A stretch of DNA of 12,065 nt from a virus (Duplodnaviria > Heunggongvirae > Uroviricota > Caudoviricetes), in IMG/VR virus record IMGVR_UViG_2579778856_000001; one strand, given 5' to 3'. Below are positions 221 to 12,065 of the stretch, piece by piece (position 1 is the first letter of the stretch; every line of letters begins with the position of its first letter). The position numbers and the translations under genes are program-made. The notes beneath the pieces are model-generated. The model ran no database searches and had not been told where the DNA came from. It saw only the letters and a program-made list of their open reading frames with translations.

Positions 221-395
221 CGGCGGTCAGTTTACGCTTACGTCCCTTCTGGTCAAAATGGACGAAGAAATGCTCTGCTTCTTCGACAGCAACGGGCGAA
301 CCACCATGCCCCGTAAAGCTTTCTCCCTGCGTACTGGCGTAACCCGCCGCCAGCTGTTTCCAGACGCCATTTACTTCATTGAACGGGAGTTCTGA
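210..395 (+). pseudogene. Probable C-terminal remnant of the gene that preceded the radC-like gene, cut off by the IS insertion
   Basis: 61-codon ORF whose ATG lies at the predicted IS boundary. The frame only opens at 192 (TAA at 189-191). Its TGA (393-395) sits one base before the radC-like ATG (397), the tight coupling expected of the original operon partner. No recognisable domain. In CP4-type islands the gene upstream of radC-like is usually an antirestriction (KlcA/ArdB-like) or YeeR-like gene; that is inference only. Confidence 0.25.
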
Positions 396-396
396 C

Positions 397-849
397 ATGA
401 CCATGTTTACCCAGCGTGAAACCCGTATCCTTGACCAGGCGCGTGACATTATTAGCCGGTACTACCAGCGTGGGGTTCAACTCTGTTCCCCTGATGATGT
501 TCGACGGTGCGTGATGGTTGAGCTGGCACCGCTTGAACATGAAGAGTTTGGCATCATCCTACTCGATAATCATAATCAGCTGCTGCACCGCGAAATCCTG
601 TTCAGGGGTACGCTAAACTCGGTCAGCGTTCACCCCCGTGAAGTTATTAAGCGTGTGCTGAAACATAACGCCGCCGCCGTCATCCTTGTCCATAATCACC
701 CCAGCGGCGAGCCTGAACCCAGCCGGTGTGACATCCAGTTGACCAAAAAGCTTCAGGAGCTGCTGGAAATACTGGATGTGCGGTTACTTGATCACTTTAT
801 CGTGGCAGGAACTGAAACGGTGTCGATGGCTGAGCGAGGACTGGTGTGA
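397..849 (+). CDS. RadC-like JAB/JAMM-domain protein (DUF2466; YeeS/YfjY/YkfG-type of CP4 cryptic prophages)
   Basis: Translation MTMFTQRETRILDQARDI...HPREVIKRVLKHNAAAVILVHNHPSGEPEPSRCDIQLTKKL contains the complete JAMM signature H-x-H-x7-S-x2-D (HNHPSGEPEPSRCD) and the HPREV motif of the RadC family. The ORF track's TTG start at 379 is less likely than ATG 397 or 403. Confidence 0.85.
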   Translation: MTMFTQRETRILDQARDIISRYYQRGVQLCSPDDVRRCVMVELAPLEHEEFGIILLDNHNQLLHREILFRGTLNSVSVHPREVIKRVLKHNAAAVILVHNHPSGEPEPSRCDIQLTKKLQELLEILDVRLLDHFIVAGTETVSMAERGLV

Positions 850-895
850 TGCTGAAAGTTACTTGGTTTAATGTACGTTATTGCGGGTTACGCGC

Positions 896-1825
896 ATGAG
901 CAGGACAGCGTTGCGTCAGGTCGTGCCGGTGGTGCAAACCACCGTGTTCGATGCGTATATTGTCGGTCTGGCCCCCTCGGGACGGCGAGGTATCACCAGC
1001 CTGTTAAACCGCAGCGCCAGCATACTTAAACACGGTGCGGATGCAGCAGACTATCCGTGGGAACAACTTAACTACGCCGCCGTTGCCAAAGTGCGCGCGG
1101 CACTGCTGGATGACGGTTACGCCGTGTCATCGGTCAACATGGCGCTGTCAGCACTCCGGGGCGTAGCGCAGACGGCCTTTAACCTCAATTACATGGATGC
1201 CGAAACGCTGGCACGTATCCGGTCAGTTAAGCGCGTGAGCGGCGATGTCCAGCGCAAGGGAAGGGCGCTGGGCAGGCAGGAAATCCGGGTACTGATTCAG
1301 GCTGCAAAACAGCATCCGCAATCTGTACGGCGCTGTCGCGATGTCGCCATTGTGCTGATGCTTTGCGGAACGGGCCTGCGGGCCGGGGAACTGGTTAAAC
1401 TTGAGCGCCGGGACTATGACAACGGCATCCTGACGGTGAGGCAAGGGAAGGGGCGTAAATACCGTGAAATTCACGTGGCGGATGCGGTGGACAAGGCTAT
1501 TCGTGCGTGGCTGAAAGTTGGCGCAGACGAGGCTGACAGTGCGTTGTTTAGGCGAATTCAGCGCAGTGGTAAGGTCGCAAGCCAACCGCTGACTACGACC
1601 GGGTTAACGGGTATCCTGGCTGAGTTACAGCAAACGGCAGGTATAGCACGTTTTACCCCGCATGATATGCGGCGCACCTTCATCACCCGTTTGCTGGAGC
1701 AGGGCGTGGATATCAATACCGTCCGCCAGTTGGCAGGCCACAGCGACATATCCACGACGACGCGCTATGACTGTCGTGGTGATACTATGAAGATCAGTGC
1801 CAGCAAGCGCATCAGATGTTTTTAG
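896..1825 (+). CDS. Tyrosine site-specific recombinase / integrase (small, about 309 aa, XerD-like size)
   Basis: Catalytic-domain signatures are present: LRAGEL (Arg), GKGRKYREI (Lys), HDMRRTF (His-x-x-Arg), GHSDISTTTRY (His ... nucleophilic Tyr). ATG 896 preferred over the track's TTG 881. No N-terminal DUF4102/SAM-like extension typical of P4-type integrases. Confidence 0.85.
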   Translation: MSRTALRQVVPVVQTTVFDAYIVGLAPSGRRGITSLLNRSASILKHGADAADYPWEQLNYAAVAKVRAALLDDGYAVSSVNMALSALRGVAQTAFNLNYMDAETLARIRSVKRVSGDVQRKGRALGRQEIRVLIQAAKQHPQSVRRCRDVAIVLMLCGTGLRAGELVKLERRDYDNGILTVRQGKGRKYREIHVADAVDKAIRAWLKVGADEADSALFRRIQRSGKVASQPLTTTGLTGILAELQQTAGIARFTPHDMRRTFITRLLEQGVDINTVRQLAGHSDISTTTRYDCRGDTMKISASKRIRCF

Positions 1826-2426
1826 CAGTTGAGGCGTTGCCAGACTCGGTTTCAGTTTCATCTTCAGCACTCAACCGCGCGTACTTTTGATTCTGGATGT
1901 TAATTTGTGCATTGATATTTTCAGGCTGAAGCATCCACGCAACATCCTCACGCGCCCATTCTTTACCGTCAGAGAGTCGTTTTAACCGGGGTTTCCATAT
2001 TCCATACTCATTAAGTTTTTCTGCTACCGAAGCATATTTCTCACGATCTGACTCCCCCGTATGAAGCTTGTCAAAACGACCTTTTACAAGCTGGTAAACA
2101 GTATAGATTTCCAGTGCCTTAGGGGACCTGGCCGGGACTATCATGGGGTGTTCCTCCGGCCTATAAATCCCGTTTGGCTCTCCCTCATTGAGCAGGTCAT
2201 TAAACATGTGGTTCACGCAGGCACTCAGCACATCTGCCGCTTTCTCCGCAGCGAATTTATCCGGGCTAAAACCCGCTCCCGTCAGTTTCCGGGCAATCAG
2301 TGCCAGTTTTTGCCGGGTATCCCGTCCCAGATAAAGCTTCTTCTCCAGAAATTCAAAGACCTCGTTACTGCTTTTCCGTTCCCGGTGGCATCTGGCGTCA
2401 GCCTTGTTGCTTTGGTTACCAATCAT
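1812..2426 (-). CDS. Hypothetical protein (204 aa), convergent with the integrase and divergent from alpA; candidate island repressor or accessory gene (the position yfjH occupies in CP4-57)
   Basis: Long minus-strand ORF. The second ATG (2426) is preceded by GGAGGTGA with a 4-nt spacer (minus strand reads ATGGAGGTGACTATGATTGG). Predicted product MIGNQSNKADARCHRERKSSNEVFEFLEKKLYLGRD... is mostly helical and acidic at the C-terminus, with no domain I can name. Its 3' end overlaps the int stop by about 14 bp. Confidence 0.6.
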   Translation of the reverse strand: MIGNQSNKADARCHRERKSSNEVFEFLEKKLYLGRDTRQKLALIARKLTGAGFSPDKFAAEKAADVLSACVNHMFNDLLNEGEPNGIYRPEEHPMIVPARSPKALEIYTVYQLVKGRFDKLHTGESDREKYASVAEKLNEYGIWKPRLKRLSDGKEWAREDVAWMLQPENINAQINIQNQKYARLSAEDETETESGNASTAKNI

Positions 2427-2445
2427 AGTCACCTCCATGACAGTG

Positions 2446-2648: not shown

Positions 2649-2846
2649 ATGAACACCAACCGTATTTTGCGTAAAAAAGAGGTACTTCATCTGACGGGGA
2701 ACTCGTCAGCGACGTTGTACCGACTCATCTCGAAAGGATTCTTTCCTTTGTCAAAGAGGCTAACGGGCGACAATGGCCGGGCGGTAGGCTGGCTGGAGAG
2801 TGATATCAATAACTGGGTTAACAGCCGTATGCAGGCGGGAGAATGA
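2649..2846 (+). CDS. alpA: AlpA-family phage transcriptional regulator (MerR-like HTH; P4 Vis / CP4-57 AlpA type)
   Basis: 65 aa: MNTNRILRKKEVLHLTGNSSATLYRLISKGFFPLSKRLTGDNGRAVGWLESDINNWVNSRMQ. Shows the canonical AlpA pattern (L/I)R.xEV..LTG.S.sTiYRli..G.FP....L....VGW.esei..W. AGGAGC lies 7 nt upstream of the ATG. Confidence 0.85.
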   Translation: MNTNRILRKKEVLHLTGNSSATLYRLISKGFFPLSKRLTGDNGRAVGWLESDINNWVNSRMQAGE

Positions 2847-3402: not shown

Positions 3403-4257
3403 ATGAACGATTCTTATTACTTCAGAACATCTGACCCGGATTACATTCGTCACGCACCGTCAATGCTTGAGATTTTAAGTAAAGCATTCCCCACTATTAT
3501 TACCCAGCAGGAAAGTGAGTATGAACTGCAGCGTCTTAACCATTTACTAAATAAACTGAAAGGCAGCAATCGCTGCTACAACATCATTGCTCAAAAACTA
3601 AGGCAGTGCAGAAACGGATCTCCATGCAACAGTCTTATATGCCCGCATTGCCAGCGGGAACGCATTCTGGCGCAACTGGCTATGTTGCATGTCTTGCCGG
3701 GGAATTCAGCAGAATACGTGGGAGTGGTCCTGTTTTTCAACAAGGATACGCAAACTCCGCCGCCATGGAAGAACATTGGGGCGCTCAGGGCGCAAATCGG
3801 TCGTTATAAGCAGAGGATAAGCCGGGTACTTAACCGCCTGGGGTACGCCGGTCCGGCCACAGGCACCTTCAGTATGATGCGACATATGCCTGATGGCCCA
3901 GAAGAGCGTATTTTCTGGGTTCCACAGTTGTGTTTGTTCCTGCCCAATGACAGTACGTTGATTAAGGGGCTAAAAGCGCATATGTCGCGAAGTGGTGGGG
4001 CATTCATTGATGCATCGACGCTTAACACACCAGTGATCGTGCTCAGGTATAAAGATCCCGCGAGACTGATTTCATGCGCCCTGAATCCAGTCTGGCACAC
4101 AGCAGATTACACACTGACTGATAAAGACGCTCTTGTTAAGTCAAGAATGGAGCTACTGAAAGGCCGGACACTGTTAAAAAGTCTGCTTACCCTGGACTCA
4201 CTCGGAACAGGTGTCGTTTCTTTTTCGTTTGGGCAACCCCCAGGGAAAGTGCACTGA
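3403..4257 (+). CDS. Hypothetical protein (284 aa) with cysteine cluster RQCRNGSPCNSLICPHCQRER; candidate replication/DNA-binding component of the alpA operon
   Basis: ATG 3403 preceded by AGGAATATTAA. Continuous 284-codon ORF in the same orientation as alpA. C-x5-C-x4-C-x2-C resembles a zinc-ribbon. No confident family assignment. Confidence 0.65.
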   Translation: MNDSYYFRTSDPDYIRHAPSMLEILSKAFPTIITQQESEYELQRLNHLLNKLKGSNRCYNIIAQKLRQCRNGSPCNSLICPHCQRERILAQLAMLHVLPGNSAEYVGVVLFFNKDTQTPPPWKNIGALRAQIGRYKQRISRVLNRLGYAGPATGTFSMMRHMPDGPEERIFWVPQLCLFLPNDSTLIKGLKAHMSRSGGAFIDASTLNTPVIVLRYKDPARLISCALNPVWHTADYTLTDKDALVKSRMELLKGRTLLKSLLTLDSLGTGVVSFSFGQPPGKVH

Positions 4258-4272
4258 TTTACCGGTAATGCA

Positions 4273-4404
4273 GCAACTGCAATGCACTTTTGCTGTTGAT
4301 TAAATTGCAGTGGAACGACGAATAACAGCGGCAACCACTGCATTTTCGTTGTTGTAAAACTGCAAAGCTTGCCAGTGATTTTGATGGCGCTGATGCACTT
4401 TAAC
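4273..4404. repeat. Iteron-like direct and inverted repeat cluster (candidate replication origin or regulator binding array)
   Basis: GCAACTGCAATGCACTTTTGCTGTTG (4273-4298), an inverted copy AATTGCAGTGG (4303-4313), GCAACCACTGCATTTTCGTTGTTG (4331-4354), AACTGCAAAG (4358-4367), TGATGCACTTTAAC (4391-4404). Core (A/C)ACTGCA(A/T)T recurs five times. A/T-rich TTTAAC patches follow. Confidence 0.45.
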
Positions 4405-4833
4405 ATTCCAACTGTCTCGATTTTAACGCAACCGTCTGTTTTCTGCAGGGGCTCACGGATGCCTCTGCACACCCGATCCTTACCATCAACTGACGAGTTA
4501 GCGCATCTGTGAGGGCTTTCTGTGTTTCTGTCAGTGAATATTCTACACACAATGGGGGGAGCGGTCAGCGAGCACCATTGCCATTGAGCGCAACGGAGAG
4601 CTTGGGGACATGCAGCACTACGGAGGCTTCATCTCCTTCTCATGTCATTAAACGATACGGCGAACGAGCGCAGCGAGTGAGGGAAGGCGTCAGCCTGAAC
4701 AGGGGGAAAGATTTGCGACCGGAGTGGAGCAAATCATGGGCGGAGCCCATCCTCGCGACTGGGGTTTTGACTTTCGAATTGCCCAGCGTTGAGTTTGGTT
4801 AATGTAGTGAGACGAGGATGCTGAGAGGGGACC

Positions 4834-6231
4834 GTGAGTACTGAAAAGGATTATCCAGTGAAGATCCCTAAGTGGGTTTATGACCGTATTACTGAAATAA
4901 CGGATTATGTCGTGGGGGATACGCAATGGGCTGTTACCCGGCGGCAGACAGTACGGTGGTTCCTGGCTCACATATGGCTGGAAACAGACGATGATGGCTG
5001 GACTATATGCACTGTCCGGGATATCCGTAGCAGCTATGCCAGTCTCCTGGGACAGTGTGAAATTAGTTACCAGGGGGAGTGCTTTATGTCCACGCTAACT
5101 GATTTCCTGCCGACACTTTCGGATATTGAATTTCGTGCAGGAAAAGCGAGCAAAGACCCGGAAAAGCGTAGAGCCAGTGCATGGCGGTTCAACCCCCTGC
5201 TGCCTGTGTGTGATGAGTCTGCCAGGGGTAAGTTAAATCTGGTTGACTTGGATACTGGTGAGTCTGTTAGTTTTAGAGCTCTGCTTCAGGGGAACGGGAA
5301 AGCTCCTGGGCATGCGATAGATGTAGAGAAACGCCAGACGGCCCTAAAACAAACGGAAAAGGACTTCTTGGCCAAAGTTGGGCGGGGGCGCATGAGTATA
5401 CAGTTTGTGAAGGAATTGCGTAGCCGTGAGCCGGATCACTATTACCGCGCAGGAATACGCAGCCTTAACCATCTCTACAATGGCAGGATTGAGGGACAAT
5501 ATGTCACTTACGACCATCATTATCGTCTGACGTTTGGAGGGCGGTATTATGATCAAGCTTTCCAGAATCTGCCCAATGAGTTCAAAGCTAAATTTCGGAC
5601 CGGGTTACTCAACTATGACATCGAAGCGTGCAATCTGGCCTGTCTGAACCATCTGTTCAGACAGTATGACGTCGATTATCGTGTGAAGTCATCGATATAT
5701 AAAACCATGATGGAACATACCGGGCTGACCCGTAAACAGTGCAAACAGATGGTCCATACCACCACCTACAGAATTGGGCGTGTGACTATTGGTGTTAATG
5801 ATGGCCTTGGGGCAAAAGTGTATGGATGGTGCGGTAACAGCAAAAAAAAGGCGCTAAAGATTTTGCGTTGGTGGAACCGTTATATCAGTCCATTGAAATC
5901 TGCGCTTGAGTCATTGCTGGAACGTGTGCATGGCGCACACCGCAAGAGTTGTTCATCACCGCGTAACTATCACAGGTACGCTAATGAAGTCGGATTAATA
6001 CTGGATCTTAATAGTGAGGTGTATCAGCGTGAAAAGACTCACCATCATCAATATGCGCGGAATAAGGCACTGTTGGCGTTTATGATCTGTGGTGTGGAGC
6101 AGGCGTATATCCGTGAGGTTGTCAGTATGAACCCTGGTCGTGTCTGCATGCTGGATCATGATGGGGTAGTGGCAACGGGCGCGCTTTCACTACCGGACTG
6201 GCGTGGTTTCACGATGAAAGTGAAGGACTAG
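4834..6231 (+). CDS. Hypothetical protein (465 aa) occupying the position of yfjI in CP4-57; carries motifs reminiscent of right-hand (PolA/T7-like) polymerase motifs A, B and C
   Basis: GTG 4834 is the first start after the in-frame TGA at 4822, with GAGAGGGG 3 nt upstream. Motif-like segments: LLNYDIEACNLACLNHL (aa 258-274), RKQCKQMVHTTTYRIG (aa 300-315, R-x3-K-x7-Y) and MLDHDG (aa 439-444). Spacings of about 42 and 139 aa are similar to Klenow's D705 / K758 / D882. Whether this is a real polymerase fold is unverified. Confidence 0.7.
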   Translation: MSTEKDYPVKIPKWVYDRITEITDYVVGDTQWAVTRRQTVRWFLAHIWLETDDDGWTICTVRDIRSSYASLLGQCEISYQGECFMSTLTDFLPTLSDIEFRAGKASKDPEKRRASAWRFNPLLPVCDESARGKLNLVDLDTGESVSFRALLQGNGKAPGHAIDVEKRQTALKQTEKDFLAKVGRGRMSIQFVKELRSREPDHYYRAGIRSLNHLYNGRIEGQYVTYDHHYRLTFGGRYYDQAFQNLPNEFKAKFRTGLLNYDIEACNLACLNHLFRQYDVDYRVKSSIYKTMMEHTGLTRKQCKQMVHTTTYRIGRVTIGVNDGLGAKVYGWCGNSKKKALKILRWWNRYISPLKSALESLLERVHGAHRKSCSSPRNYHRYANEVGLILDLNSEVYQREKTHHHQYARNKALLAFMICGVEQAYIREVVSMNPGRVCMLDHDGVVATGALSLPDWRGFTMKVKD

Positions 6232-6355: not shown

Positions 6356-7050
6356 TGTGAGTTCAACGGGTCGATGCAACGCTGTCCCTAATCAAGGGGG
6401 ACGTTGCCATGAAACGAAGAACTCGTATTAACTACACGCCAGAGCAAAAGGTGATTATTTGGGACAGATATAAGCAAGGTGATTCCCTGCATGATATCCC
6501 CCAGAATGTTCGACAGATTTCACTCTACTATCATGCCTACAATCCACCAGGCCGGTGGCTACCGTCCTCCCGTGCGAAAGCGGCACCGGTTAGCGTTTTC
6601 GCTTGATGAAAAAGAGGAGATATCCAGAGGACTGGTAGCAAAACGCATCATCAGGGACATCGCTGCTAAATTATCAATAGCTCCCTCAACGATTAGCCGC
6701 GAGATCAGGAGGCACGGCGGTGCAAAACAATACCGTGCAGCAAAAGCCGATCCTGCTGCGTGGGAAAATGCTCTGAGACCAAAACCTTGCAAGCTAATTG
6801 AAAGCCCCACATTGTGTAAAATCATTGCAGAGAAGATGCATCAGGACTGGTCGCCGGAACAAATTGGCGGTTGGCTAAAACGCTGTTATCCCGATAATCA
6901 GGAAATGCATGTGTCACATGAAATGATTTATAAAACGCTTTTTATACCAACCCGGGGAGCTTTAAAAAAAGAGCTGCAGCAATGCCTCAGAAGCGGAAGA
7001 GTAGTGCGTAGATCCAAAACCTCATCACTTAAAGTAAACAGAGATACATT
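6356..7050 (+). mobile_element. IS30-family insertion sequence remnant (left IR plus the 5' two-thirds of the transposase gene; 3' end deleted)
   Basis: 6356-6380 TGTGAGTTCAACGGGTCGATGCAAC resembles the IS30 left terminal IR (TGTAGATTCAATTGGTCAACGCAAC, from memory). The transposase start lies about 53 bp inside, as in IS30. Homology to the IS30 transposase stops near aa ...KVNRDT (about 7048), well before the DDE domain. Confidence 0.7.
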
Positions 7051-7090
7051 CTGGTCACGAATGCCCGGTTGTTCGTGCTTTGCGTTTTAA
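6409..7090 (+). pseudogene. IS30-family transposase, frameshifted (in the C5 run near 6500-6505) and C-terminally truncated
   Basis: Frame 1 (6409..) MKRRTRINYTPEQKVIIWDRYKQGDSLHDI matches the IS30 N-terminus pattern MRRTFTAEEKASVFELWKNGTGFSEI. Frame 2 (from about 6489) ...RMFDRFHSTIMPTIHQAGGYRPPVRKRHRLAFSLDEKEEISRGL...WSPEQIGGWLKR...YKTLF... matches the IS30 HTH region (...ERKRAVAHLTLSEREEIRAGL...WSPEQISGWLRR...YKTLY). The switch between frames occurs at atcCCCCCag. The last about 13 codons (FWSRMPGCSCFAF) are non-homologous read-through. Confidence 0.75.
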
Positions 7091-7227
7091 TCGCATTTTA
7101 CAGTTTCTGCCTGCGTGCAGAGGTTGATGGTATTTTCTGAAAAAGCGGCTCGCTTTGCTAATGCATATGGCACAAATACAACAGTTTGTGTCATTCTGAC
7201 CCATCTTTATACCGCGACGGTGGAAAC

Positions 7228-9798: not shown

Positions 9799-9918
9799 TC
9801 AGACATGAGATAAATGAAGGGGGATCCGTGAGATAAATAACGAATTGGAGTGGGTTAACATGGGTTCTGGTGAACAGAACTGAAATTCTTTTCCGCTATA
9901 CGATAGATAAGTCGGGCA

Positions 9919-9948
9919 TTGAAATCATCCTTCCTGGCAACTTAGAAT
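9919..9948 (+). promoter_or_regulatory. Sigma70-like promoter TTGAAA-17 bp-TAGAAT upstream of the 53-aa ORF
   Basis: Read directly: TTGAAA (9919-9924), 17-nt spacer, TAGAAT (9943-9948). Predicted TSS about 9955, leaving a roughly 37-nt leader to ATG 9992. Confidence 0.4.
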
Positions 9949-9991
9949 CGAGTTTGCTGAAACATGACCCGCAACAAAAAGGATGATTCCA

Positions 9992-10153
9992 ATGACTACT
10001 CAAAACAATAAGCATGATAGCCTGGATTACTCAGAAAAGCCCAAAAGCAAGCACATCGTGACGTTCGAGCGCGATTCCGGTAGAAAAGGAGAATCGTCTT
10101 CCTCTGCCAATAAAACCACTATGCCGGCAGCCCCTGCCCCAGGGAAAAAATAA
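9992..10153 (+). CDS. Small hydrophilic protein (53 aa; MTTQNNKHDSLDYSEKPKSKHIVTFERDSGRKGESSSSANKTTMPAAPAPGKK); not in the supplied ORF track (below its length cut-off)
   Basis: ATG 9992 has AAGGA 8 nt upstream and the promoter above. K/S-rich, no TM, predicted disordered. Stop TAA 10151-10153 lies 3 nt from the stop of the convergent membrane gene. Confidence 0.4.
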   Translation: MTTQNNKHDSLDYSEKPKSKHIVTFERDSGRKGESSSSANKTTMPAAPAPGKK

Positions 10154-10156
10154 ACA

Positions 10157-10789
10157 TCATTCATCGTTCGTTGCACGAACGCGCCTGATCTCCACTCTGG
10201 CAATCTGATCTGCTGGAATATAGGTTGCCAGAGCTCCCCAGTACTTATCAACCACGCCTTTATACTCTTCCCATTCGTTACTGCCTGAAGGGCTGCTGTG
10301 CGTGACGTAAAGAACCATATCGCCTTTATTCCCCAGGGTAAACGGACCGTTAGGCCACTCTTCAAAGTTCCCTGGCAGCCGTGACATCATACCGGAACCA
10401 TCGCGAAGAATCACTCTGACCTCGGTAACGCTGAAGCCTGTTTGATCAAACATTGCCTGCCATGCTGAGCTGGTATCGTCAGACCATGAAATATCATTAT
10501 TCCACAGTAATCTGTACATCCATTTGCGACCGTACCTGCGCCACCACGCACCGCATGTAAGGGCACACAGAAGTGCTGGTGGTGTTGCCAGCCAGGCATT
10601 CAGACCTGCCCACATAACAGCCTGGTAAGCCATCATTGCTGTCAGGCCAAAAATCAGCGAAGAAAAAGTCACCTCAATGGGCTTGTGGTGATCCTTCAGT
10701 CCCACATTCGCAATAAAATACCCAATATAGCCACTGGTCAGGGTCACCAGTGTTGCCCATGGCAGATTTAACAACGAAACGTCAAACAT
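10157..10789 (-). CDS. Hypothetical membrane protein (210 aa): three N-terminal TM helices plus about 120-aa soluble C-terminal domain
   Basis: Start ATG 10789 (MFDVSLLNLPWATLVTL...) is preceded by GGGAGAAAAT. The track's longer start (10867) would run through the mor terminator hairpin and is rejected. TM segments approximately at aa 8-30, 38-62 and 68-83. The C-terminal domain ...GNKGDMVLYVTHSSPSGSNEWEEYKGVVDKYWGALATYIPADQIARVEIRRV is of unknown family. Confidence 0.65.
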   Translation of the reverse strand: MFDVSLLNLPWATLVTLTSGYIGYFIANVGLKDHHKPIEVTFSSLIFGLTAMMAYQAVMWAGLNAWLATPPALLCALTCGAWWRRYGRKWMYRLLWNNDISWSDDTSSAWQAMFDQTGFSVTEVRVILRDGSGMMSRLPGNFEEWPNGPFTLGNKGDMVLYVTHSSPSGSNEWEEYKGVVDKYWGALATYIPADQIARVEIRRVRATNDE

Positions 10790-10824
10790 ATTTTCTCCCT
10801 GCATCCTGAATACTAAAGAGAGAG

Positions 10825-10866
10825 CATAAAAAAAGCACGGTAAGGGGTCTACCGTGCTTTTATACA
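10825..10866 (-). terminator. Rho-independent terminator of the gemA-mor transcript (hairpin AAAGCACGGTA-AGGGGTC-TACCGTGCTTT; T7 run on the minus strand); partly bidirectional
   Basis: 11-bp perfect stem 10832-10842 / 10850-10860, 7-nt loop. The minus strand continues TTTTTTTAT (complement of 10825-10831). The plus strand continues TTTTATAC. It lies 38 bp downstream of the mor stop. Confidence 0.65.
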
Positions 10867-10903
10867 ATAAGGAGATTTTTGAAAGGACTTTAACAAGCAG
10901 GAA

Positions 10904-11302
10904 TTATCTGGATTTGTTAACGTCTTTCGTCTCCTCTGGCAGATCTTCATCAAACAACCTGCCCTGCATCCGATCCAGTTCTTCTTTTCTGACCCGCTTA
11001 ACCACGCTGTAGACCCACTGAAGCGAAACACCAAACTTGCGGGCCAGTTCGTGGTGGTTGCGTCCGTTAAACTCCCTGAAGATTTCCCGGTCGCGCTGAC
11101 TGACCTTCCATACCATGCCCATCGGGAAATAAACGTTTTGCCCGCCCCAGACCTGCATCATTCGGTTCGCGACGGCCTGACCAATCTGGTCGGCAACTTC
11201 GGGCTCAATATCAATAATCTCGCGAACGGTCTCAGAGGTATGCTGTGCCAGTTCCACCAGGAGTTCCGGCCCCTTACTTCGAAACTGATTCAGGTCGCTC
11301 AT
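10904..11302 (-). CDS. mor: Mor-family transcriptional activator (phage Mu middle-operon regulator / C family), 132 aa
   Basis: MSDLNQFRSKGPELLVELAQHT...VYFPMGMVWKVSQRDREIFREFNGRNHHELARKFGVSLQWVYSVVKRVRKEE. The RDxxIxxxFNGxNxxELAxK(F/Y)G(V/L)Sxxx(V/I)Y C-terminal HTH is characteristic of the Mor/C family. RBS GGAGTCAAAC-ATG. Overlaps the gemA-like 3' end by 29 bp. Confidence 0.75.
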   Translation of the reverse strand: MSDLNQFRSKGPELLVELAQHTSETVREIIDIEPEVADQIGQAVANRMMQVWGGQNVYFPMGMVWKVSQRDREIFREFNGRNHHELARKFGVSLQWVYSVVKRVRKEELDRMQGRLFDEDLPEETKDVNKSR

Positions 11303-11726
11303 GTTTGACTCCCGCAGCTCTGCGCTGCCACTTCTTCAGTTTCTCAATAACACTGCTTGCCTGTTCAGTACTGAGCCAGCGCAGGGCGCTGATGCCCGTT
11401 TCCCGCTTGATCCACCGCGCTAATGCATTTTCTGAACGGTCACGAACAATGCCGGCAGCAGCCATTTCAAGCCATAGCGCACGGATTTTCCTGGACTGCG
11501 GATGGTTATCCAGCGGTAAACCGGAGCTGGCTTTTCCGGCAGGCTTAACGCGAAAGCCTTTCCTTTTCATGGATTCCAGCACGCAGTTTAGTTGTGTGGT
11601 ATCCATTCCTTTGGTTGAGGCTTTACCGGTCAGCCCCTGTAACATCTGGCGGTAGGTGTCTTCATCCATACCCAGTTCATTACGGGCAATATGAATGAGC
11701 TGGATAAGACGTTGTTTAGTCATCAT
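11274..11726 (-). CDS. gemA: Mu gp16/GemA-like protein (DUF1018 family), 150 aa
   Basis: From the ATGATG at 11726, with AGGAG 5 nt upstream: MMTKQRLIQLIHIARNELGMDEDTYRQMLQGLTGKASTKGMDTTQLNCVLESMKRKGF... The N-terminal motif is typical of Mu-like gp16/GemA proteins, as is the location immediately upstream of and overlapping mor. The track's earlier start (11765) is in frame but lacks an RBS. Confidence 0.7.
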   Translation of the reverse strand: MMTKQRLIQLIHIARNELGMDEDTYRQMLQGLTGKASTKGMDTTQLNCVLESMKRKGFRVKPAGKASSGLPLDNHPQSRKIRALWLEMAAAGIVRDRSENALARWIKRETGISALRWLSTEQASSVIEKLKKWQRRAAGVKHERPESVSK

Positions 11727-12065
11727 CGTTGCTCCTTTTACCTGCGCCACCGATATAATCGACATATAAAGGAAGCGCCACAGGCCAGCACAGGAACATC
11801 ACCGACCAGCTAATCCAGTAGCCAGCACCACTGTAACGTGAATAAAACCCTGAACGGCGGTGCAGTTCAGCAGTACACCAACCGACAAAACAATACCAGA
11901 ACAGGGCACATACAACAGATTCAGCCGTCATTCTGAATATCCCCCCAACTGATATGAATATTACGGGCAGCAATGACAGGGTCGTTATTCCACCATGCAC
12001 CTGACATGTATTTTTCAACCTGTTCGCGTCCGGCAATAACACCAATTGTGATCCCCGGCCTGACG
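11716..12065 (-). CDS. Hypothetical small membrane protein, partial (frame open to the window end); its 3' end overlaps the gemA-like start
   Basis: Minus-strand frame is open from the window edge (12065) to TAA at 11716-11718. Predicted product has two hydrophobic segments (LSLLPVIFISVGGIF, VVCALFWYCFVGWCTA) and an acidic tail. The internal TTG/GTG start at 12045/12042 is uncertain. Confidence 0.4.
   Translation of the reverse strand, partial: SGRGSQLVLLPDANRLKNTCQVHGGITTLSLLPVIFISVGGIFRMTAESVVCALFWYCFVGWCTAELHRRSGFYSRYSGAGYWISWSVMFLCWPVALPLYVDYIGGAGKRSNDDD

Follow-up and report, generated by a model that had tools for sequence, protein, structure and literature searches.

The window analysed here, a stretch of 12,065 nucleotides, contains genes for an internal tyrosine recombinase, for a divergently transcribed 208-aa protein, for an AlpA-family regulator or excisionase and for a Cys-rich 284-aa protein, followed by a conserved non-coding region and the gene for a 465-aa putative polymerase (Table 1). 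AlpA heads the operon that the polymerase gene ends. Given that many homologues start at the codon equivalent to the GTG at 4858 (MKIPKW..., with AAGGA before it), the protein may be 457 aa long.

Table 1. Features of the window; strand is given where it applies, and residue numbers refer to the 465-aa protein.
Feature	Position	Strand	Details
XerC/IntP2-like tyrosine recombinase, internal	881..1825	+	314 aa; Pfam Phage_integrase, E 1.4e-31
208-aa protein, transcribed divergently and paired with AlpA	1812..2438	-	no family match
AlpA-family regulator/excisionase	2649..2846	+	Pfam Phage_AlpA, E 2.6e-12
Cys-rich 284-aa protein between AlpA and the polymerase gene	3403..4257	+	no family match
Three iteron-like units	4243..4410	.	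AAAnTGCA, ~29 nt, TGCAyTTT; spacing 55-56 bp
Invariant non-coding box CTACACACAATGGGGGG	4543..4559	+	family consensus YTACNCANNATGGGG; 291 nt before the start codon
Conserved leader	4559..4750	+	two G/A-rich repeats and two hairpins
Putative polymerase gene	4834..6231	+	465 aa; winged helix plus minimal PolA-type polymerase (predicted)
N-terminal domain, winged-helix-like	4861..5193	+	aa 10-120; DNA binding presumed
Middle helical region	5221..5469	+	aa 130-212; possible reduced thumb
FGGRYYDQAFQNLP block	5530..5574	+	aa 233-247; counterpart of Pol I 'TGRLSS..NLQNIP'
Motif A	5605..5655	+	aa 258-274, LLNYDIEACNLACLNHL; beta-strand ending at D262, then helix
Motif B / O-helix	5731..5778	+	aa 300-315, RKQCKQMVHTTTYRIG; K304 invariant
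G420/E422 long helix	6070..6117	+	aa 413-428; counterpart of the Pol I 'QGxAAD' helix
Motif C beta-hairpin	6142..6174	+	aa 437-447; H442-D443-G444 invariant

The gene in its island neighbourhood

In Enterobacterales, related islands inserted next to ychF or yicC (loci are denoted below by L numbers) show a recurrent gene order, namely, DUF2787, RadC, the integrase, a hypothetical gene on the minus strand, AlpA, further genes, the polymerase gene and then cargo. Counterparts of the window's recombinase are 57-58% identical in L015, L019 and L027, and the position of the 208-aa gene, whose product is probably a regulatory switch partner of AlpA, is occupied in L004, L015, L027, L028 and L029. 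Upstream of the polymerase gene, most island loci examined carry AlpA. The Cys-rich protein, absent from L004, L027 and L028, has 35-41% identical counterparts in L024, L005 and L029. The divergence of the polymerase tracks that of the backbone proteins (45-61% vs ~50-80%), and in L015, where the backbone is 55-71% identical, the same slot is held by a polymerase of another subfamily (25%). The polymerase gene thus belongs to the backbone of mobile elements.

Of 5,426 complete Escherichia coli genomes, 650 have the region, among them those of ST131, in which the polymerase gene is split by ISEc52 and the island persists. The polymerase gene is missing from L019, an E. coli island that has this backbone. 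Some islands harbour two paralogues of the polymerase, which is unusual for a replicase.

Motifs, predicted fold and affinities of the 465-aa protein

In the predicted structure, the protein is composed of an N-terminal winged helix, a short helical linker and a palm-plus-fingers core of the Pol I type. Because the linker helices (147-153, 166-180, 189-195 and 201-211) are N-terminal to the palm strands, as is the thumb of Pol I, the linker may represent a reduced thumb. Neither the sequence nor the model contains an exonuclease or proofreading domain. Structural comparison of the model revealed a similarity to T7 RNA polymerase (RNAP) that is real, although weaker than that to DNA polymerases (DNAPs); AEP primase-polymerase folds and reverse-transcriptase-like folds were missing from the structural matches, and AEP motifs are likewise absent. 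The initial annotation had put forward a small right-hand polymerase of the PolA/T7 type carrying motifs A, B and C, and both the fold, with the palm domain it called for, and the conservation described below support this proposal. Its coordinates for the motif region (5605-6165) and its spacings, 42 residues from D262 to K304 and 139 from K304 to D443, are exact.

Two sets of homologues were compared, a close family of 23 members (45-93% identity) and a broad alignment of 54 sequences that extends to relatives with ~15% identity. In the former, D262, R300, K301, K304, D441, H442, D443 and G444 are invariant; in the latter, 10 columns are, namely, G236, R237, Q244, D262, K304, G420, E422, H442, D443 and G444. 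The motif match is beyond chance, and the invariant columns are polymerase-motif positions. Among the five residues initially put forward as catalytic, no variation is seen at D262, K304 and D443 in the 54 sequences, whereas Y312 and D441 vary.

The best sequence signature is one that the initial annotation overlooked, the FGGRYYDQAFQNLP block, which both hmmsearch and hhalign aligned to Klenow TGRLSSTDPNLQNIP (Klenow 664-680) and in which N245 and P247 show no variation in the close family. In motif A, the model places a strand at 259-263 and a helix at 266-277, and hhalign superimposes D262 on D475 of T7 DNAP. The motif B helix spans residues 300-312 in the model, with K304 aligned to Klenow K758 and T7 DNAP K522. 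Of the R-x3-K-x7-Y pattern originally recognized here, only the lysine holds throughout: R300 is kept in the close family only, and Y312 is replaced by F, C, N or I among close relatives and is Y or F in other clades. The remote clades have 'LAHxIQGxE' at the G420/E422 helix, with G420 aligned to Klenow G850. In motif C, strands 437-440 and 444-447 flank a hairpin turn occupied by H442-D443, and H442-D443-G444 falls on Klenow H881-D882-E883. The proposed likeness of MLDHDG (aa 439-444, nt 6148-6165) to HDE is therefore valid for the His-Asp pair, and the Glu is replaced by Gly; D441 is restricted to the close family, with E or Q elsewhere.

Two substitutions set the family apart from family A polymerases: this Gly in place of the Glu that follows His-Asp, and the residue at the steric-gate position (D+5). 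In the window protein the latter residue is N267; the family has N, S or C there, other clades have H or Q, and the position corresponds to the Glu residues E480 of T7 DNAP and E710 of Klenow. Given the change of E883 to Gly, the variability of Y312 (the equivalent of Y766) and the N, S, C, H or Q at the steric gate, the sequence does not disclose whether the protein is active or which sugar it prefers. The core nevertheless retains D262, K304 and H442-D443, together with R237 and Q244, the counterparts of residues contacting the primer-template duplex in Pol I. Because these motif residues are retained in the alignment and the model, the protein looks catalytically competent and should carry out template-directed nucleotide addition on a duplex. 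Conversely, it is very improbable that the fold is catalytically dead and has been kept as a DNA-binding regulator or a structural protein. Such a role would fit the lost Glu of motif C and the variable Tyr of motif B, but the 10 columns that remain invariant over ~15% identity are catalytic and substrate-contact positions, a pattern expected only under selection for catalysis.

Despite these motifs, the family is barely visible to routine searches. Queries with the 465-aa protein against Pfam, PHROGs, NCBIfam and PADLOC, and with phmmer against the PDB, yielded nothing meaningful; Pfam models, PF00476 included, matched neither the window protein (E<=0.1) nor any of 20 remote relatives (E<=0.01 to 10), and a profile of the close family alone found no match in the PDB. 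The only PDB sequences retrieved by a profile at E<=10 were Klenow and T7 DNAP, and Pol I was reached only by profile-to-sequence hhalign, in which the 54-sequence profile matched E. coli Pol I at 86.6-88% (P 3-4.5e-6) with the TGR/NLQNIP block, motif B, QG and HD all in register. The same comparison with T7 RNAP showed no similarity (P 0.2-0.38). Identity to family A polymerases (Pol I Klenow, T7 gp5, Pol theta / Pol nu) is 12-15%, and the protein is roughly half as large as the smallest characterized members, whose polymerase domain alone comprises at least 540 aa. Unlike these enzymes, it has neither a 3'-5' nor a 5'-3' exonuclease, its thumb would be reduced to a few helices, and it carries the additional winged helix. 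Taken together, the alignments and the predicted fold indicate that the 465-aa protein is a real, extremely divergent and miniaturized member of the Pol I / T7 superfamily. The family is unannotated, all copies found being labelled hypothetical except for one mis-annotated as a Clp domain, and occurs on islands and small plasmids and in giant phages. A 2023 census of PolA subfamilies drew on PF00476-tagged sequences (PMC10201439); the family lies outside that census because PF00476 is blind to it.

Upstream elements and distant carriers

The iterons initially reported next to the gene are indeed there, in three units, and 6 of the 9 copies of their 8-mers in the whole 12-kb window fall within this array. 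The units are kept in L020, L024 and L005 and are absent from the lineage of L027, L028 and L004. In the leader, the 'GAGCG..CAGCGAG' repeats lie at 4559-4573 and 4666-4681, and the hairpins at 4711-4734 (ATTTGC..GCAAAT) and 4736-4750 (ATGGGC..GCCCAT); their pairing is maintained through a few two-sided changes (RNAalifold, with only ~5 distinct sequences). Rfam gave no match for the leader region at the gathering threshold or at E<=1, and no sigma-70-like promoter was found on the plus strand between 4200 and the gene.

Each of the 12 family loci examined has a single copy of the box, invariably on the coding strand and at a distance of 189-320 nt before the gene. The box resembles the promoters of the T7 group (in L004, ACTACTCACTATGGGG). 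Scored with a weight matrix derived from 10 annotated T7 promoters, it ranks 1st to 3rd among 24,000-43,000 positions in four loci and not in others; depending on the lineage, however, a fraction of 0.008-0.38 of random 350-nt windows scores equally high, and no T7-promoter enrichment was found upstream of the gene in the other two clades. We therefore regard a T7-type promoter as no more than a tentative reading of the box, the resemblance being not consistently significant in these controls.

The box nonetheless bears on the unlikely possibility that the protein is a miniature single-subunit RNAP or an origin-specific primase that would recognize in the box its promoter or site of initiation. 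Beginning with GTP at the G-run, such an enzyme would switch on its own operon or prime island replication, in the manner of T7 RNAP at the T7 primary origin or of the mitochondrial RNAP in mtDNA priming. The constancy of the box, its placement, its high matrix ranks in four loci and the missing sigma-70-like promoter all speak for this, as does motif C, HDG(F/V), which lacks the Glu of DNAPs much like the 'HDSF' of T7 RNAP; moreover, the winged helix could provide sequence recognition. On the other side stand the inconsistent promoter controls and the hhalign results, which match Pol I and T7 DNAP and show no sequence relationship to T7 RNAP, a member of the T7-type single-subunit RNAPs, which also include the small phage N4 RNAPII (gp15 + gp16). 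The TGR/NLQNIP block is a DNA-polymerase signature unlike the T7-type RNAPs, and neither a promoter-specificity loop nor an RNAP N-terminal domain was identified in the 465-aa protein. Finally, a separate primase may already exist, since in the Giesbergeria island a Toprim protein adjoins the polymerase.

That island belongs to the distant clades, in which the polymerase genes are found in phage genomes and, on plasmids of 7-11 kb, as neighbours of repA. The Giesbergeria operon consists of genes for a ParB-like protein, a helicase, Toprim_3 and the polymerase; in L007, Toprim is followed by the polymerase, and L009 has an O-like initiator, ParA, a resolvase and a ParB-like gene. On pW9NP1, the order is polymerase-RepA-ParA, and in L031 the polymerase stop codon overlaps the RepA_C start, whereas on pH8NP1 the polymerase gene is ~5 kb from repA. 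Searching deposited phages by tblastn, we found no match with the window protein, and the jumbo-phage relatives emerged only with the A4-type query, from the most diverse clade alignment.

Cloned REP regions of the carrier plasmids replicate in Polaromonas (PMC6015842). Because these plasmids have RepA_C, a standard initiator, the REP regions are self-sufficient and the gene is distant from repA on pH8NP1, basic plasmid replication can probably do without the polymerase. This self-sufficiency is also an argument for an accessory DNA polymerase that is neither replicase nor initiator and that serves repair, lesion bypass or gap filling during establishment, for example, complementary-strand synthesis following transfer. 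The missing proofreading domain and the conserved 124-146-aa partner protein encoded before the polymerase in plasmid-type loci would be in keeping with such a function, which we regard as quite improbable because it leaves unexplained the winged helix, the cis elements beside the gene and the helicase-Toprim operon.

The same genomic contexts weigh on a role in anti-phage or anti-plasmid defence, another unlikely explanation, under which the polymerase would be the first cargo gene and, upon infection, would produce an aberrant nucleic acid or a signalling product, much as the defence reverse transcriptases AbiK and DRT suggest by analogy. The gene does border on variable cargo (Type I RM plus AAA_15/21; SIR2; a retron and an ABC-3C system in the ST131 island), it is patchy on a shared backbone, being absent from L019, doubled in some islands and disrupted in ST131, and its conserved, structured upstream region recalls the ncRNAs of retrons and DRT. 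However, PADLOC-DB 2.0 (2023 library) gave no match at E<=1 for the polymerase or three neighbours, and the gene diverges in step with the backbone instead of being shuffled like cargo. Furthermore, it lies directly under the AlpA module in most island loci examined and, elsewhere, inside the replication/maintenance modules of ~10-gene plasmids and the helicase-Toprim operon.

With the initiators of iteron plasmids (Rep_3 / RepA), the family shares a winged-helix protein encoded beside repeats and the association with rep and par genes. It differs in that a putatively catalytic PolA palm and fingers take the place of the second winged helix, and the iteron-like repeats are only candidate binding sites. 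A similar likeness in winged helix and repeats extends to ColE2 Rep, an initiator-primase; here too, the putatively catalytic domain differs, being no AEP-type primase.

Probable function, pipolins and significance

On balance, we lean towards a divergent miniature polymerase of the PolA superfamily that makes DNA or primers on the genome of its element after excision or entry. From its context, a synthesis role on the element's own genome is most likely, and the same context favours, rather than proves, a replication-type function. In this reading, the enzyme would be brought by its winged helix to the conserved repeats and the box just upstream of its own gene, and synthesis of DNA or primer on the element's own genome would follow excision or entry.

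A parallel in gene layout, and in gene layout only, is provided by pipolins, islands with a primer-independent PolB (piPolB), the organization of which has been described (PMC11551731). In both cases, a second recombinase, of the XerC/IntP2 type, and an excisionase adjoin the polymerase, followed by exchangeable defence cargo (PMC11551731, PMC7385651). Pipolin-like, too, are the P4/SXT-type integrase at the attachment end in L001, L004, L005 and L028, the combination of DUF2787 and an Arm-DNA-bind_3 integrase in L001, L004, L005, L027 and L028, and the presence of orphan genes. By contrast, the polymerase here is family A-like, no PolB domain is present in the window or in the Pfam lists of related islands, and no WYL gene was seen in these islands. 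Pipolins integrate at tRNA-Leu and the present islands into protein genes, although ychF has been reported as a pipolin integration site as well (PMC11551731, PMC7385651). The pipolin authors noted 'piPolB-less pipolin-like islands', with no replacement polymerase described (PMC11551731). A bolder conjecture, which we deem improbable, would make these islands the family-A equivalent of pipolins, in which a 460-aa, winged-helix-guided, self-priming polymerase starts de novo and enables the excised island to replicate itself. The enzyme would then bind the repeats and the G-initiated box, with no need for a separate primase, and, if this were true, no smaller right-hand polymerase that is both sequence-specific and self-priming would be known.

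Family A polymerases, the standard for PCR and in-vitro transcription, rank with the most thoroughly studied of all enzymes, and yet this family has been missed by every curated model. If the protein is active, it would set the smallest functional core of the Pol I / T7 fold at ~250 residues, and the fused winged helix would constitute a new route for targeting such a core. Whether it makes DNA or RNA, its predicted compactness would make it a candidate for biotechnology. Finally, the polymerase gene is a candidate hallmark of widespread enterobacterial defence islands and ties these islands to small plasmids and jumbo phages.

A minimal polymerase fold of the PolA superfamily

Our analysis shows a genuine, deeply divergent and minimal PolA-superfamily polymerase fold in the 465-aa protein encoded in the window, with catalytic and substrate-contact residues conserved and an N-terminal domain, probably a winged helix, fused to this fold. 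It also shows that the family has no annotation and is restricted to mobile elements. Searches of the protein against Pfam, PHROGs, NCBIfam, PADLOC and PDB chain sequences returned nothing meaningful. Among 5.8 billion proteins we found 78 clusters of homologues, the most distant at 45% identity; every cluster comes from Enterobacterales (Escherichia, Salmonella, Citrobacter, Yersinia, Serratia, Pectobacterium, Raoultella) and bears the name 'hypothetical protein'. Searching 1.84 billion representatives with a profile added about 60 far more distant proteins of 430-590 aa, which match over the C-terminal 250 residues only and in which no Pfam domain was found either. These share a pattern parallel to Pol I, H.Y....GR(L/F)(Y/E)...(L/F)QN.P..(I/L)(K/R), followed by (N/D)YD(I/F)..(C/S)(H/Q)..IL and then, in order, by AK..L....(Y/F)G(A), LAH.IQG.E and L(L)(Q/E)HDGF.

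The initial annotation had read three segments as PolA-type motifs A, B and C; these are residues 258-274, 300-315 and 439-444, and both the nucleotide range (5605-6165) and the spacings (42 and 139 residues) prove correct. Among 23 close-family members (Enterobacterales homologues with at least 45% identity), D262, R300, K301, K304, D441, H442, D443 and G444 are invariant; in a 54-sequence alignment that extends to relatives only about 15% identical to the window protein, the sole invariant columns are G236, R237, Q244, D262, K304, G420, E422, H442, D443 and G444. Thus, of the catalytic positions put forward, D262, K304 and D443 are conserved, but D441 and Y312, the latter variable even within the close family, are not, and motif C has the expected His-Asp but Gly in place of the Glu of HDE. 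Aligned by hhalign to E. coli Pol I as a single sequence, the 54-sequence profile gave a probability of 86.6% (P 4.5e-6) from TGRLSS..NLQNIP through motif B, and a greedier alignment to Klenow 600-928 (88%, P 3.2e-6, 266 columns) pairs G420 with G850, H442 with H881, D443 with D882 and G444 with E883. On T7 DNA polymerase, D262 falls on D475 and K304 on K522; T7 RNA polymerase gave no hhalign signal. An hmmsearch of PDB sequences (E<=10) returned only Klenow and T7 DNA polymerase entries, with non-significant E-values. The strongest sequence signature of the protein is the TGR/QNLP block. The structure model built from the 54-sequence alignment (pLDDT 91.4, pTM 0.87) has a strand that ends at D262 and leads into a helix, an O-helix (300-312), a long helix (402-432) and a hairpin (437-447) that carries His-Asp at its turn, all as expected for this fold; only a few helices (130-212) occupy the thumb location, and the protein has no exonuclease domain. 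Sequence and structure therefore both support the PolA-type fold first suggested.

Whether the product would be DNA or RNA is a question on which the evidence is mixed. Two features are RNAP-like or neutral: a motif C without Glu, and a steric-gate position (D262 +5) that is N/S/C in the close family and H or Q in other clades, whereas DNA polymerases have Glu and T7 RNA polymerase Gly. Because many homologues start at the equivalent of a GTG at 4858 (MKIPKW), the mature protein may have 457 aa instead of 465. The largest homologue cluster, P0002 (1,010 member sequences), differs at about residues 36-74 of the winged-helix domain, where it carries the translation of the window's alternative-frame ORF 4907-5098 (GSWLTYGWKQTMMAG...). 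The pattern resembles a compensated double frameshift, through either real decay or recurrent assembly error.

Pipolin-like islands in Enterobacterales

In the window, two unknown genes separate AlpA from a 575-bp gap; beyond the gap come the polymerase gene, an IS30 remnant and a gene for a DUF2339 membrane protein. The remnant, directly 3' of the polymerase gene, is split over two frames and keeps only HTH_38/HTH_32 domains; the ST131 copy is annotated as a frameshifted, incomplete transposase. Mu-like phage early genes (9800-12065, minus strand) stand where ST131 has DUF3999 after DUF2339, which suggests that a transposable phage inserted near the end of the DUF2339 gene.

Coordinates of features in the window and in compared loci
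Feature	Locus	Position	Strand	Remarks
RadC	window	379-849
XerC-type recombinase	window	881-1825		314 aa
Divergent gene	window			208 aa; between recombinase and AlpA
AlpA	window	2649-2846
Neighbour protein	window	3403-4257		284 aa
Three repeat units	window	4243-4410		55-56 bp spacing; each AAAnTGCA, about 29 nt, then TGCAyTTT
Polymerase ORF	window	4834-6231	+	465 aa
IS30-family transposase remnant	window	6409-7090
phrog_12870 protein	window	10157-10867	-
Mor activator	window	10904-11302	-
phrog_286 protein	window	11274-11765	-
Second PolA-like paralogue	L004	6381-7889	-
Second PolA-like paralogue	L024	12215-13666	+
Second PolA-like paralogue	L029	1044-2585	+
Second PolA-like paralogue	L021	13435-13914
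Small protein before polymerase	L009	5702-6076
Small protein before polymerase	L017	1289-1663
Small protein before polymerase	L031	9520-9960
Small protein before polymerase	L032 (pW9NP1)	6828-7205

Complete E. coli genomes carry the region in 650 of 5,426 cases. In ST131 it lies on an island adjoining ychF/pth, together with a retron and an ABC-3C system, and the polymerase gene (L001 15392-16561) is split by ISEc52, as in all E. coli matches at the top of the list (ST131 and relatives), sometimes with ISEc23 in addition; the window copy is intact. Relatives with 45-61% identity occupy islands that lie at ychF or yicC and encode a P4/SXT-type integrase. The recurrent backbone runs HTH_35, a 175-aa gene, DUF2787, RadC, Int, a hypothetical gene on the minus strand, AlpA, (unknown genes), gap and polymerase, and is followed by variable cargo (Type I RM plus AAA_15/21, SIR2 and others), with Gabija on the opposite flank of one island (L004). 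A gene heading such cargo might itself encode a defence enzyme, a reading that we consider unlikely; the divergence of the polymerase roughly parallels that of the backbone proteins. The island L015 has a backbone with 55-71% identity but, in the same slot, a polymerase of a different clade (25% identity); on some other islands both clades occur together. The second paralogues belong to the clade found in L015, and AT-rich sequence with repeated TATAG-type motifs lies upstream of them. L019, an E. coli island that shares the backbone, has neither clade.

Gammaproteobacterial pipolins combine an SXT-type integrase, DUF2787 and orphan genes with an IntP2-type recombinase and excisionase beside the polymerase, then exchangeable defence cargo (PMC11551731; PMC7385651). 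The Enterobacterales islands match this layout, a likeness at the level of gene order; 'piPolB-less pipolin-like islands' have been mentioned by the pipolin authors (PMC11551731).

The conserved region upstream of the polymerase gene

Conservation of the 575-bp gap in places exceeds that of the proteins. Six of the nine window copies of the repeat-unit 8-mers fall within the three units. An invariant box, YTACNCANNATGGGG, at 4543 in the window, occurs once per locus in 12 of 12 family loci, on the coding strand and 189-320 nt 5' of the gene. The gap also holds G/A-rich repeats and two hairpins with a few compensatory changes; the upstream region has no Rfam match and, on the plus strand, no sigma-70-like promoter. 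The box resembles T7-group promoters, and in four loci the T7 weight matrix ranks it first to third; in a windowed control the fractions were 0.008-0.38, the upstream regions of other clades yielded nothing in this control, and we treat the likeness as a weak lead only. The top matrix match in the window, TAAAACGACTCTCTGACGGTAAA at 1967 (-) within the divergent 208-aa gene, is kept in close relatives (L020 7115 (-), L001 11568 (-)) and is probably due to chance.

A Cys cluster, CRNGSPCNSLICPHCQRE, marks the 284-aa neighbour, which matches nothing in the libraries searched; the protein is 35-41% identical in some islands, 22% in the polymerase-less L019 and absent from others. It may bind the 56-bp units, which start at its stop codon. 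In lineages without these units (L025, L027, L028, L004), a conserved palindrome, TTCCATTTTTAAAAATGGAA, probably an operator, lies just after AlpA, about 300-400 nt 5' of the polymerase gene.

Plasmid and phage relatives and a proposed role of the enzyme

The largest distant clade is mostly metagenomic and betaproteobacterial, and small complete plasmids carry it. On the 7.2-kb plasmid pW9NP1 of Polaromonas the order is polymerase-RepA-ParA...resolvase-small protein, and the homologue on pH8NP1 (11.2 kb; L033 6095-7600) is labelled 'Clp protease N-terminal domain-containing protein' in RefSeq, apparently a mis-annotation. On a plasmid-like contig (L031), the stop codon of the polymerase gene and the start of a RepA_C gene overlap; the contig (positions 1-14568) is made up of two 91%-identical copies of a 9,456-bp unit and could represent two related plasmids joined as a co-integrate, or strain variants assembled together. 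Another contig (L009) has the polymerase amid a weak O-like initiator, ParA, resolvase and ParB-like genes. A Giesbergeria island ends an operon of ParB-like, helicase and Toprim_3 genes with the polymerase, and the Toprim-polymerase pair recurs on a 39-kb viral contig; on other viral contigs the gene lies near structural genes, and the distant clade found in islands is shared by 41 jumbo phages that infect Erwinia, Dickeya and Yersinia. Plasmid-type loci encode, immediately 5' of the polymerase, a conserved protein of 124-146 aa without family match (34-48% identity among L009, L017 and L031; the pW9NP1 ORF is assigned by position only), which could be an accessory subunit.

Cloned REP regions of Polaromonas plasmids replicate (PMC6015842), and in pH8NP1 the polymerase gene lies far from repA, so that the enzyme is probably dispensable for basic theta replication of these plasmids. 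An accessory repair polymerase seems to us less likely still than a defence enzyme. We favour instead an enzyme that would act on the element's own genome to synthesise nucleic acid, whether as replicase, primase-polymerase or priming RNA polymerase, and that the winged helix may target to the adjacent repeats; in the pipolin-like islands, it may be the functional counterpart of piPolB.
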